From contig NC_086097.1 of the NCBI RefSeq assembly GCF_963921235.1, positions 129,830,001-129,894,000 of the forward strand: a stretch of 64,000 bases of DNA, read 5' to 3'. The notes under the pieces are model-generated. The model made no database searches. It was not told the origin of the DNA and saw nothing but the letters and a program-made list of their open reading frames with translations. Position 1 is the first letter of the stretch. Every line of letters starts with the position of its first letter. The stretch is from Mobula hypostoma (Eukaryota). A program made the translations under genes and the position numbers. Positions 4,141 through 55,220 of this stretch are shown here, one piece after another.

Positions 4141-4196
4141 TAATTTACAGTATGTTATCTGATGCATCACAGGTTGGTATGGTAACTACCCTGCCT

Positions 4197-4756
4197 GGGG
4201 TGTATGGGGTGTCAGGGAGGGGTAGCACCTCTGGTGGGGGAACATGTCGCGTCCTTTTCAAGGTGGTTAGTCCACCTTTGGTCCCCACCTGGCACTCAGC
4301 TCTCACCTGTGACTCCTCGTAGCTGGTTGCATGCGACAGCAGCCACACCCCGGGCAATGGCTTTGACAAGCCGGCTAAACCAGTTGAGGGTAGCCGACGG
4401 GTCTCAAACCCTCGGTGAGATAGGGAGTTGTCTATCCCAGCATGTGAAGACAGACTCCGGCGGATTGAGCGGACGAGACCAATGGAAGGTCCAACGGTCA
4501 AGAAGGCGGTCTCTGCAAGCGTCGTGGAACTTGTAGAGCAGGACAAGACACAGAAGGCGTCCCGGTCATCCACTGCGCCTAGTCCCATCTCCAGCCGTCT
4601 CGACTCTGTCTTGCCACTGGATACAGATGGGAATTGGGAAGAGAGAGTGAGGCTGACGCTGCGCAACTCCCCCTCACTTAAATCCAAATCACGCGCTAGT
4701 CTCGACACCGTCAATGGTGTCGAGGTCCTCATCGACGTCGACGATGGACAAACACA
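4197..4756 (+). mobile_element. Non-autonomous RTE-like short element (5'UTR joined to a 3' end) headed by an HDV-like ribozyme
   Basis: GC/CpG-rich insert flanked by a short duplication (ctgcctg) inside the Rex1 copy; RTE-type 3' end catcgacgtcgacgatggacaaacaca; no credible protein. Confidence 0.7.
4206..4390 (+). ncRNA. HDV-like ribozyme (predicted)
   Basis: P1 ggggtgt/acacccc; P2 4300-4309/4381-4390; P3 gac/gcc; L3 begins tcctcg; gggcaa after P1'; P4 ggctt/aagcc; J4/2 ggCtaa. Confidence 0.75.
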
Positions 4757-5003
4757 CTCTGCCTGAGATTGTAAGGAACTGCAGAGAGTTATGGACACAG
4801 CTCAGCACATCAGGGAAAACCAGTCTCCCCTCCAGGAACTCTGTCTACACTTCTCACTGCCTTGGTAGAGCAGCCAACACTATTAAAGACCTCAACACCT
4901 CTCTGATTGGGTAGAAGATACAAAAGCCTGAGAGCACAATACACCAGGCGCAAGGACAGCTTCTATCTTCTATTCCATTTTTATAAGACTATTGAAATGG
5001 TTA

Positions 5004-5291
5004 AAATAAATAAATAATAATAAAGGCATCCTTCAGTCTTGCGAGACCATGGATCTGCGCCTGGAAAGTCTTCACTCTCCAGGGCGCAGGTCTGGGCAAG
5101 GTTGCCCATGCTGCAAGTCTCCCCTCTCCACAACACCAGTGTTGTCCAAGGGAAGGGCATTAGGACCCATGCAGCTTGGCACCAGTGTCATCGCAGAGCA
5201 ATGACACAACACATTGCCTCGGCTGGGGCTTGAACTCACGACCTTCAGGTCGCTAGTCCAATGCCTTAACCACTTGGCTATGAGCCCACAC
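5004..5291 (-). mobile_element. tRNA-derived SINE
   Basis: Minus-strand head tagccaagtggttaaggc..gagttcaagcc (A and B boxes), (TTA)n-like tail, 11-bp TSD tgaaatggtta at 4993-5003 and 5292-5302. Confidence 0.85.
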
Positions 5292-7555: not shown

Positions 7556-7591
7556 AGTCCTGATGAAGGGTCTCGGCCCGAAACTTTGACT
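7556..7591 (+). ncRNA. Second, degenerate Penelope hammerhead
   Basis: agtc-CTGATGA-agggtctcggccc-GAAA-cttt-gact; stem III palindrome mutated. Confidence 0.65.
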
Positions 7592-8819
7592 GTACCTCTT
7601 CCTAGAGATGCTGCCTGGCCTGCTGCGTTCACCAGCAACTTTGATGTGTGTGGCTTGAATTTGCAGCATCTGCAGATTTCCTCGTGTTTGCATAGAAAGG
7701 CAGATGTAATTCAAAATATAAATTTGGTACTTTCATCATACTGAGGTGATTTCAGTGAAATGGCCTTGACCCTTATCTGTCTTCCTGTTCAGCACCTCCT
7801 CTGTAACTGTAGCACTATCTTCTGCATTCTGTTATTGTTTTATCCCTTTGTACTACCACAGTGTTTGGAATGATCTGTCTGGGTGGCATGCAAACAAAGC
7901 TTTTTACTCTATGATATTTCACGTGACAATAATAAACCAGCTACCAATTGTATTGTTCTCATAATAAAAAAATCCTGCAAATAAACCATTGAAGCAATTA
8001 TGGAATCAATTAATGATGGTATTAATTTCTTACAGCACAGAGTGGAAGTAATTAAAATGAAACTATTTAAAAAAAAAGTTACTTATTTGACCATTAGTGC
8101 ATTAGCACCTTCAAAAGATATACAAGGAAGAACTTGATTCTCATTAGGGGAAGATTCTTTCATATAGTATCACTTCAACATTGGACAAATTAGAATCTTA
8201 TTATGTAGTTTGCTTTTGTTAATTCAAGCATGTCACAGGATTAAGAAGGACTTGAGCAACCTGCATCTGTCATTTAGAATTGGAAGTTGAATGTATTTAA
8301 AGGCTCAATACTGATACGTATATAAATGTAAATTTCATGCACAAGTAAAAAGACATTCCATGATTACAATTGGTTCTTCACGAAAGGACAATTAATAAAT
8401 GTTAGAAGCCTGCATTGTTGAAGCTAGCAGGGCAGCAATGATACAATAGCATTTAACTTGCTCTTTAATTGAATCATTGTGAAAATTGATGTTATGGTTT
8501 GTGTAAAATACTTATAAGTGCCTCCTTCTTAAATAAGTTTCTGTTCCACAAGTTCCAGCTGGTAACTTGCTTGCTTCTTAAAGCACATGCCAGCTGGTCA
8601 GTCAAAGGAAACCTGATGGACACACCAGTTACTTGTATCATCTGCCTGCAGTGGGCCGTGAATGGGATGTGATTGAAGATTGATCTTATAAGGCATTTTA
8701 TCATATTGAAGGCACGTTAAATGCACTTTTCAACACTTATTATCAGGGACTCGGGTAACTGATGGCACCATTGAATCCATCTTGCAGTATACAACAAAAA
8801 ATGATCTCCGCAGCCTCAG

Positions 8820-32257: not shown

Positions 32258-32950
32258 TTCAGCCAATGATTGGTGTGTCAGGGCTGACCTGGACAGGAAA
32301 GGCAGTTTCCCGGAGCAAATAGCTTTCTCAACATTGCGTCCAGATATAATCGTATGGTCTGACACCAGTAGGGAAGTGGTTATTGGTGAACTCACAGTCC
32401 CCTGGGAAGACAACATCGATGAAGCCCATGAGCGCAAGTTAACCAAGTATGCAGAATTAAGATCAGAGTGCAGAGACAGAGGGTGGAAGGTCTCATGCTA
32501 TCCATTCGAAGTAGGCTGCCGTGGGTTTATTGCGTTCACTTTCCAGAAGTGGCTGCGGACCTTGGCTTCACTAGAAGAGAGATCAAGTCAACCAGCAGGG
32601 TTGTAGCTGAGGCAGCAGAGAAAGGATCAGCATGCGTGTAGACCAAGTACGTCCAGAGGGGCAGATAGTCAGACAGTGTATACATATCTTGCAAACCCTT
32701 CAGTAGTTGCATAGACACCTGAAGAGCAGACTATCTGTTGGATGGAAGTGACTGATAGAGGCAGATGCCAAGTTTTTAAGCTCACCAGTGGGAGGTGGTG
32801 CTTTAGCACTGCTGGCCCACCACCTCGAGGGAGTCTTGATCATAAGCGGGCCGAAACTCCTGAAGACAGGTGGTGGATCAACTGATGATCCCACTGGTGA
32901 TAGCACAGGACAGTTAACATCTCAGTCCACGTGTATTTTGTAACTCTGAT
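32258..32950 (+). mobile_element. Hero-clade (restriction-like endonuclease) non-LTR retrotransposon, 3' fragment
   Basis: LRPDIIVWS..VIGELTVPWEDNIDEAHERKLTKY..PFEVGCRGF, a PD-(D/E)xK RLE domain, followed by a 3'UTR. Confidence 0.9.
32829..32895 (+). ncRNA. Predicted non-circularly permuted hammerhead ribozyme, copy 1
   Basis: ggagTC-ttgatc / agcggg-cc-GAAA-ctcc / gatcaa-CTGATGA-t-cccact. Confidence 0.7.
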
Positions 32951-41970: not shown

Positions 41971-43352
41971 TAAACAAGAGAAAATCTGCAAATGCAGGAA
42001 ATCCAAGCAACACACACAAAATGCTGGAGGGACTCAAAAGGCCAGGCAGCAACTATGGAAAAGAGTACAGTCAACGTTTCTGTCCCTATCTCTGGAGGCA
42101 GCTTATCAATTATAAACCCATGGACTCTCACAGCTAGCAGGACTATACCTCTTCTCACCCTGTTACTTGTAAAAATGCCATCAACTTTTGTCAACTCCTT
42201 TGACTCCGTCACATCTGCACTCAGGATGAAGCTTTACATACCTGAACAGAGATGTCCTCCTTTTTCAAAGAAAGGAGCTTCCTCCACCATCAATACTGCC
42301 CTCAATTGCATCTCTTCCATTTCATGCAAGTCTACTCTCACCCCATCCGCCCGTCACTCTACCAGGGATAGGGTTCCTATTGTCCTCACCTATCACCCCA
42401 CCAGCTTCCGCATCCAGCACGCAATTCTCCGTAACTTCCATCATCGCCAATGGATCCAACCACTAATACACCTTTCTCTTCCCCCCACTTTCACCTTTCC
42501 ACAGGGATCCTTCCCTAAGCAACTCCTTTGTCCATTCATCTCTTCCCATTGATCTCCCTCCTGGCACTTATCCTTGGAAGTGGAACAAATGCTACACTTG
42601 CCCCTACACCTTCTCACTCACTCCCATTCAAGGCCCCAAACAGTCCTTTAAGGTTTGGTGATATTTCACCTGTAAGTCTGTTGGGGTCATATACTGTTTT
42701 TGGTGCTCCTGGTGTGGCGTCCTATAAATCAGTGAGACCTGACGTAGATTGGAAGACCGCTTCATTGAGCACCTATGCTTTGTCCACCAGAAGAAACGGG
42801 ATCTTCCAGTGGCCACCCATTTTAATTCCACTTCCCATTTCCATTCAGATATGCCTACCCATAGCCTACTCTGCTGTTGCAATGAGGCCATACTCAGGTT
42901 GGAGGATCAAGACCTTACATTCTGTCTGGGTAGCTTTCAACTTGATGGCAAGAACATCGATTTCTCAAACTTCTGGTAATGCCCCCATCCCCCTTCACTA
43001 TTCCCCAATCCCCTTTTCCCCCTCTCACCATATCGCCTTGCCCGCCCATCACCTCCCTCCGGTGCTTCTACCCCCTTTTTTTTTCCTTCCATGGGCTTGT
43101 CCTCTCCTATTACATTCTCTCTTCTCCAACCCTGTAGCTCTTCCACCATTCAACTTCCCAGCTCTTTACTTCCCCCTCCCCTTCCCGGTTTCATCTATCA
43201 CCTTGTGTTTCTCCCTCCTCTCCTCCACCTTTTAAATCTACTCAGCTTTTCTTCTCCATTCCCGCTGAAGAGTCTTAGCCCAAAACGTCGACCGTACTCT
43301 TTTCCATAGATGCCACCTGGCCTGCTGAGTTTCCCTAACATCTTGTGTGCGT
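41971..43352 (+). mobile_element. 5'-truncated Penelope-like element with an inverted terminal repeat
   Basis: DRVPIVLTYHP, PVATHFNS..RLEDQDLTFCLGS..NIDFSNF; inverted tail at 41971-42080; 14-bp TSD tgagggattaatct at 41957-41970 and 43353-43366. Confidence 0.92.
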
Positions 43353-54399: not shown

Positions 54400-54490
54400 C
54401 AGTTTATCTCAAGCCCAACTGGTCCTGTTTACAGCAAATTTAGCAACAAAATTTGCTGTAAACAGGACCAGTTGGGCTTGAGATAAACTG
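54400..54490. repeat. Perfect inverted repeat, 42-bp arms with a 7-nt spacer
   Basis: 54400-54441 is the exact reverse complement of 54449-54490; spacer agcaaca. Confidence 0.97.
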
Positions 54491-55117: not shown

Positions 55118-55220
55118 AGGGAGTCTTGATCATAAGTGGGCCGAAACTCCTGAAGACAGGTGGCAGATCAACTGATGATCCCACTGGTGATAGCACATCT
55201 TAGTCCATGTGTATTTTGAA
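55118..55220 (+). mobile_element. Very short Hero 3'UTR fragment containing permuted hammerhead copy 2
   Basis: Near-identical to 32828-32940; stem II agtggg/cccact is fully paired. Confidence 0.85.

Follow-up and report, generated by a model that had tools for sequence, protein, structure and literature searches.

A predicted HDV-like ribozyme with an enlarged L3 at the 5' end of a short RTE-derived retroelement in Mobula hypostoma

The F1 element, its copies and its relatives

We analysed a window of 64,000 nucleotides of Mobula hypostoma DNA (contig NC_086097.1, positions 129,830,001 to 129,894,000 of the forward strand), and all positions below are those of this whole stretch. Positions 4197-4755 on the plus strand hold a copy of F1, a bipartite and non-autonomous retroposon of RTE type that has no coding capacity; its ~558 bp leave no room for a reverse transcriptase (RT) ORF. 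The element begins with a predicted ribozyme, all parts of which lie on the plus strand. It continues with a distal RTE 5' UTR (4428-4701) that is 74% identical to the LINE family RTE-A and stops at the RTE-A ORF start codon, and it closes with an RTE-type 3' end (4702-4755), which carries a short CA/ACA/ACC tail and is a likely recognition site for the mobilising RT. The flanking target-site duplication (TSD) has 10 bp with one mismatch; its 5' member (4188-4197) overlaps the first G of the element and its 3' member lies at 4756-4765. A sequence-only reading of this locus had set the insertion boundary at the start of a P1 helix, with ctgcctg as the TSD. The boundary stands, since the TSDs adjoin 4197, and a TSD is indeed present, although it is longer than had been given.

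The 3.48-Gb genome contains 3,173 candidate F1 matches, the best 40 at 95-97% identity. Copies can be aligned over 4197-4754 at about 90-96% identity and have common ends at 4197 and 4754; their flanks upstream of 4197 are unrelated between copies, TSDs adjoin the element start, and the tails consist of CA, ACA or ACC. A permissive search found TSDs, mostly of 8-15 bp, in 52/68 full-length copies, a count that includes a few matches of 6-8 nt which may be due to chance. The F1 counts omit duplicates, three loci with split alignments (L073, L074 and L078) and, where stated, L061-L080, which were ascertained on a P1' change. In both L074 and L073 the 5' part of F1 is inverted, in the manner of twin priming. 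F1-like cores with other P1' sequences gave 20 matches, all of which proved to be F1 variants. Near-identical F1 sequence was present in sequencing runs of eight organisms, with F1 and the related family F2 together in three of the runs examined, and the element was not found in the raw-read runs X21-X23. Run X16, by our guess RNA, contained F1 as contigs only, a form uninformative on 5' ends or cleavage.

F2, with 199 pattern matches in the same genome, is ~540 bp long, and its first 380 nt are 73% like those of F1. A genome search with an RT motif that we take to be RTE-typical gave 1,448 matches and yielded the partner LINE. RTE-A, a putative member of the RTE clade, has APE and RT domains in one reading unit, and the HDV fold was seen in 0/30 of its copies. 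The 5' ends of this young family (L179, L184-L213) consist of a variable number of 44-bp GC-rich tandem repeats with a TATA-like motif, a head whose sequence resembles a monomer promoter. RTE-B (394 candidates) starts at P1 of an HDV-like fold. Its 5' ends (L237-L266) hold what is predicted to be a canonical short-L3 HDV-like ribozyme with a ~200-nt J1/2, and the 5' strand of P1 consists of a GU repeat, which in several copies runs into GT microsatellites in the flank. RTE-C is represented by two ~4-kb LINE loci (L420 and L421) that are 88% alike and have an RT domain and an F1-type ribozyme head with the L3 insert described below. Judged from these 5' ends, modules may have been swapped within one RTE lineage, with promoter-like repeats in RTE-A and a ribozyme in its sister families.

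The ribozyme head of F1 matches RTE-C at 78% over the first ~310 nt, and its 3' end has the final ~9 nt and the ACA tail in common with RTE-A; the 26-nt match between the two 3' ends is weak (81%, E = 0.48). F1 thus joins an RTE-C-like head to a distal UTR and tail similar to those of RTE-A, and may have a hybrid origin. A direct autonomous parent was absent from 30 loci obtained with a 3'-end query and from 13 matches of a UTR-end pattern, and no tRNA match indicative of a tRNA-derived SINE head was found in 4197-4755.

In one F1 subfamily, a tRNA-SINE-like insert of ~125 nt lies immediately upstream of the 3' end, at the equivalent of 4712, and the tail differs (L008, L023, L069, L073, L078, L079, L080, L221, L224, L225 and L226). 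A similar insert is found in L426, a short element derived from RTE-C, and for this reason chimeras of ribozyme head, SINE and RTE tail may have arisen more than once. ARAGORN called no tRNA in the seven loci tested. The window itself contains a tRNA-headed SINE on the minus strand (5016-5290), with a weak Rfam tRNA match at 5218-5284 and 94% identity between its last 48 nt and the 3' terminus of a further RTE LINE (L153, L158). Repeats at 7558-7629, 43260-43331, 32828-32907 and 55118-55197 include CUGA-GA and GAAAC motifs and resemble the minimal hammerhead ribozymes of Penelope-like elements. In addition, a perfect 42-bp inverted repeat with a 7-nt spacer lies at 54400-54490.

The HDV-like core fold and the position of P1

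The first ~195 nt of F1 fit the HDV-like nested double pseudoknot of P1, P1.1, P2 and P3 with an optional P4. The motifs listed by the sequence-only reading are all in place, namely GGGGUGU at 4197-4203 and again at 4206-4212, ACACCCC at 4345-4351, UCCUCG at 4314-4319, GGGCAA at 4352-4357 and GGCUAA with C4375. P2 (4300-4310 with 4379-4390) has 11 bp, with one bulged C in its 3' strand, and closes directly on P3; the helix had been recognised before, with a shorter extent of 4300-4309/4381-4390. P3 pairs 4311-4313, for which the majority sequence is GGC, with 4342-4344, and the 3' strand of P1 follows at 4345-4351. The catalytic core segment of L3 (4314-4319) provides the U, the two Cs of P1.1, two variable bases and a G. 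The GG of P1.1 (4352-4353) is kept in F1, F2, RTE-B and RTE-C, while J1.1/4, which completes this segment to 4357, differs. The P4 hairpin (4358-4373), described earlier as ggcuu/aagcc, is present with 6 bp. J4/2 (4374-4378) is GCUAA in F1 and in the other three families, and CUAA fits C-N-R-A and is not CRRA. The candidate catalytic C4375 is kept in 57/58 F1 copies.

We searched the window with a relaxed descriptor of our own design, which tolerated two defects in P2 and one mismatch in P3 and accepted any L3 length in the range 7-40 nt. It found one site in the 64 kb, with L3 at 4314, a length of 28 nt, C4375, and P1 at 4197 or 4206; its background was 6/200 in shuffles of the whole window and 0/5000 in shuffles of 4197-4400. 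A descriptor with L3 limited to 7-9 nt gave nothing in the window, and a stricter descriptor missed the window copy. The strict form was passed by 37/59 full-length F1 copies, all with a 28-nt L3, by 17/30 RTE-B copies and by 1/30 copies of F2, the older family. P1, P1.1, P2, P3 and the core bases were all intact in 30/58 F1 copies, and 96-98% of cells in each helix were paired across copies (98.4% for P2 in 58 copies). An Rfam scan of the window region matched no ribozyme family. Plain minimum free energy folding of the window copy was uninformative (z = -1.0), a result to be expected of a pseudoknot fold.

The window copy has two defects, A4312 in P3 and a C4306-U4384 mismatch in P2. Both had been reported by the earlier reading and they hold for this copy, but not for the family, in which the majority restores the helices with G4312 in 50/53 and G4384 in 51/53 copies. 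Since the P3 of HDV and CPEB3 is highly sensitive to single changes, according to the available text of PMC9901934, this copy is probably impaired and is predicted to cleave poorly.

Evidence for the fold also comes from RTE-B. Its P1, P2 and P4 sequences differ from those of F1 and the middle P3 pair is reversed, and all positions are nonetheless paired except for one C-A in P2. RTE-B has the same GCUAA, and its L3 of 7 nt is followed by a P3' that runs straight into P1'. At the start of P1, column conservation climbs from 0.37 to 0.82, and the same fold, built from fully different helices, again has the 5' ends at P1. Within the closer pair of families, a compensatory change from G-C to C-G separates F1 from F2 at 4359/4372 in P4, and F1-to-F2 paired changes in the J1/2 helix P1.2 comprise U-G to U-A and A-U to C-G once a 1-nt insertion in F2 is taken into account. 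Because helices covary across families (RTE-B, and F2 in P4 and P1.2), we regard the core fold of F1 as real on comparative grounds. Together with the descriptor results and the ends of copies, this upholds the proposal that a short, non-coding element derived from an RTE begins with an HDV-like fold.

Both GGGGUGU repeats pair perfectly with 4345-4351, and the question of which one forms P1 can be addressed from copy ends and folding energies. Based on 53 distinct F1 copies found by 3' queries, 24 begin at 4197, nine at 4198-4200 and none at 4205-4207, with 20 scattered truncations; the alignment query began at 4197 and could not extend upstream. A constrained fold is ~12 kcal/mol better with P1 at 4197 than at 4206, in F1 as well as F2, because use of the second repeat abolishes P1.2. 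This basal helix (4207-4216/4288-4297), which includes the second GGGGUGU, has a pair probability of 0.95-1.0 in the F1 majority and 0.33 in F2. We therefore place P1 at the first repeat, 4197-4203, on the modelled energies and copy ends, with a G1-pyrimidine pair at its base (G4197-C4351) and predicted cleavage just 5' of G4197. P1 had been assigned to 4206-4212, a strand that instead pairs with 4288-4297. The expectation that full-length copies start at the P1 G is borne out at 4197 and not at 4206. With P1 corrected, J1/2 measures 96 nt (4204-4299) and not ~87 nt, and P1.2 agrees with the description of J1/2 as long and structured.

Cleavage at G4206, with the second repeat as P1 and the upstream one as a leftover duplication, would accord with the lower variation of the second repeat (4/440 against 13/394 in the first) and with the RTE-C copy L420, which may start at the second repeat. 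In the other RTE-C copy, L421, a TSD-like match ends at the first repeat, and the F1 copy ends and the energetic cost point the same way; we give the G4206 register very little weight. At the 5' end (4197-4214) there is a 9-nt tandem duplication, near perfect in L421 and L420, from which the doubled P1 strand probably originated, with its inner copy recruited into P1.2 later. Both RTE-C copies have a C-A at P1 pair 7. A4202, in linkage with two other variants, defines a sub-lineage of F1 (10/73 copies) that spread in spite of the A-C mismatch which this base introduces into P1.

The L3 insert

L3 of the window copy has 28 nt (4314-4341), outside the 7-8 nt expected of an HDV-like ribozyme, and includes a 21-nt insert beyond the usual length. 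We take the insert (4320-4341) to sit after the G25-equivalent in HDV numbering. The core segment that precedes it is UCCCCG in the F1 majority, UCCAAG in F2 and UCCUCG in RTE-C and RTE-B. The UCCUCG previously given as the start of L3 is thus correct for the window copy and a minority form in the family, with T at 4317 in 9/84 copies and C in 74/84. F1, RTE-B and RTE-C follow the U, C, C, N, C, G rule for conserved L3 positions in a published descriptor, whereas F2 has A at the C24-equivalent, which is fixed as C there (PMC6326823).

A hairpin is predicted at 4322-4340. In the F1 majority its stem, 4322-4327/4335-4340, has 6 bp closing a 7-nt loop (-6.6 kcal/mol), and in the window copy G4326 breaks one pair. 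The ~28-nt length of L3 is as the sequence-only reading had it, and the hairpin it drew is replaced by this predicted stem. Between the F1 and F2 majorities the insert is identical at 22/22 positions after CpG correction; elsewhere, identity between the two families is 56% for inner J1/2 and 79% for the downstream part, with 14 as the longest identical run there. Three RTE-C-type copies match at 20-22/22. All six pairs of the stem are invariant across F1, F2 and RTE-C, and since there is no covariation the hairpin keeps the standing of a prediction, with a pair probability in pseudoknot-free folding of 0.45 in F1 and 0.83 in F2. P2 is likewise invariant among these families, for which reason the insert-bearing block may be conserved as sequence or may have been swapped between families.

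A 34-place pattern spanning P3, L3 and P3 had 2,201 exact matches in the genome, related families included, and its reversed control had none. The pattern for a short-L3 version of F1 had 0 matches in the genome. Because Vingi 5' ends may have a long L3, we also looked for cores in which P3 is reversed. Of the 10 matches, five were F1 variants and five were attributable to chance, including three that fell in pol sequence of LTR elements. When metagenome and viral contigs were scanned by pattern, 0/148 loci among the matches listed passed the full descriptor.

The core could be active without an L3 hairpin if P3 were formed by 4311-4313 and 4322-4324, closing an 8-nt loop and leaving the remainder between P3 and P1', or if the insert were unstructured or neutral. 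The alternative P3 (G-U, G-C, C-G) does give a loop of canonical length, and the want of covariation in the stem would be natural in such a case. However, it amounts to -0.4 kcal/mol against -8.0 for P3 with the L3 hairpin, P3' of RTE-B leads straight into P1', and the genome pattern search yielded no hairpin-less F1 lineage, all of which makes this arrangement highly improbable. Returning to the 28-nt L3 with its predicted hairpin, RTE-C coding LINEs begin with an F1-type ribozyme that includes the insert, and on this sequence evidence the long L3 is the mark of a single lineage to which coding LINEs also belong.

The main rival to a 5' end set by a ribozyme is an internal promoter. In that case, the 5' end would be a transcription start, the HDV-like fold would be inherited, inactive or secondary, and the invariant 4300-4390, including the L3 insert, would be conserved as DNA or protein-binding sequence. 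The invariance of P2 and the insert among F1, F2 and RTE-C would follow naturally, and the departure of F2 from the L3 consensus, the spread of the P1-mismatched A4202 sub-lineage and the 44-bp repeats that head the sister family RTE-A are all compatible with it; moreover, the same 77 nt of L1Tc are both promoter and ribozyme in the account available from PMC3383444. However, RTE-B achieves the same fold with unrelated helix sequences and has its 5' ends at P1, P4 and P1.2 covary, and none of the four families has lost GCUAA or the C75-equivalent. On balance, we consider a promoter-set 5' end unlikely.

Proposed mechanism and comparison with known systems

The F1 family with its ends, TSDs and tails, the helices and their covariation against RTE-B, and the L3 insert common to F2 and RTE-C are read from the sequence. 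It is quite likely, in our judgement, that the window holds a slightly decayed copy of a ~558-bp RTE-derived element whose predicted HDV-like ribozyme, in the first 195 nt, cuts before G4197 and so sets the 5' end. We infer cleavage, the RT partner and the role of the hairpin from these features, as follows. An F1 copy would be read through from a host promoter. P1.2 would form early, hide the second GGGGUGU and hold P1 beside the 11-bp P2, as in drz-Agam-2-1 of Anopheles gambiae. C4375 would act as the general acid, and the released RNA would start at G4197. An RTE reverse transcriptase, for which RTE-A is the best candidate, would then bind the 3' end in trans and carry out target-primed reverse transcription. 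Placed at the 3' end of L3, the predicted hairpin probably points away from the active site, and it was probably retained as a folding aid or a protein-binding handle.

With the genomic HDV ribozyme (Rfam RF00094) and with CPEB3, F1 shares the order P1, P1.1, P2, P3, P4, a two-pair P1.1, J1.1/4 and a catalytic C in J4/2, a candidate in F1. It is unlike them in its 28-nt L3, in CUAA instead of CRRA in J4/2 and in having no Rfam match. The accessible part of bioRxiv 10.1101/2022.09.22.508989 gives an L3 of 8 nt for genomic HDV and of 7 nt for both antigenomic HDV and CPEB3. This loop is one wall of the HDV active site, and 7-8 nt is treated as fixed in available structures and descriptors. A natural, conserved L3 helix would add a third insertion point to the HDV fold, besides J1/2 and P4. 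In the accessible literature on HDV-like ribozymes we found no natural L3 hairpin, and none appears in the available portions of PMC4035085, PMC13635239, PMC10879173, PMC2950038 and PMC13708176; long-L3 examples may already be shown in figures or supplementary data of three papers (Ruminski 2011, Webb 2009, Webb and Luptak 2011). As a structural variant, the L3 hairpin is apparently undescribed, whereas the overall biology, a short retroelement headed by a ribozyme, is already known.

More speculatively, and with appreciable doubt, ribozymes with an L3 helix could form a natural HDV-like subclass, unchanged in at least three RTE families, whose helix is a working module that docks an RTE protein or makes a tertiary contact by which the active-site loop withstands loss of the conserved C, as in F2. 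If so, they would have been systematically missed by standard descriptors and by Rfam, in which L3 is fixed at 7-8 nt; they could be common in vertebrate genomes, and ribozyme searches would undercount vertebrate cases. Within this one genome, families with a long L3 (F1, F2 and RTE-C) can be compared with RTE-B, where L3 is short, and with RTE-A, which has a tandem-repeat head in place of a ribozyme. RNA-based tools for gene insertion also make use of RTE UTRs, as described in part of PMC13708176.

Among short elements, R2 SIDEs and R2/R1 hybrid SIDEs of Drosophila (PMC3414825) and NARTc and SIDER of trypanosomatids (PMC4035085) have ribozymes shown to cleave. Like F1, they are non-coding elements, of about 530 bp, with a 5' HDV-like ribozyme, predicted in F1, and with a borrowed 3' end, probable in F1. 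The R2 SIDEs are specific to rDNA, and NARTc and SIDER belong to the Ingi clade, whereas F1 is RTE-type and dispersed; the available text of the same two papers has no mention of an L3 hairpin that we could find. F1 is also like the bipartite non-autonomous LINEs RTESINE1/2, WALLSI3 and Bov-A, as far as they are described in the accessible part of Kojima 2018 (PMC5786205), in joining a whole RTE 5' UTR to a short 3' end, probably of RTE origin in F1, without an ORF and with a microsatellite tail. It differs from them in that its exact parent was not found, the head being RTE-C-like and the distal UTR and tail RTE-A-like.

In conclusion, a close parallel is with the HDV-like ribozymes of the RTE clade (Ruminski et al. 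2011, as cited in PMC3774820, PMC6765202 and PMC5786205), which cleave at the 5' junction of the element (PMC3774820; PMC6765202). One of these, drz-Agam-2-1 (Webb et al. 2016), has a structured J1/2, a P1.2 and a 12-bp P2, and P1.2 with a long P2 speeds cleavage, according to the available text of PMC4908430. F1, known from sequence only, is unlike drz-Agam-2-1 in its L3, which has 28 nt with a predicted 6-bp hairpin in place of 7-8 nt, and in its duplicated P1 5' strand. On the other hand, both have a double pseudoknot at the 5' end of an RTE element with a cut site, predicted in F1, at the element's first base, and both have a large J1/2 closed by P1.2, short linkers and an extended P2 of 11 bp in F1 and 12 bp in drz-Agam-2-1 (PMC4908430).
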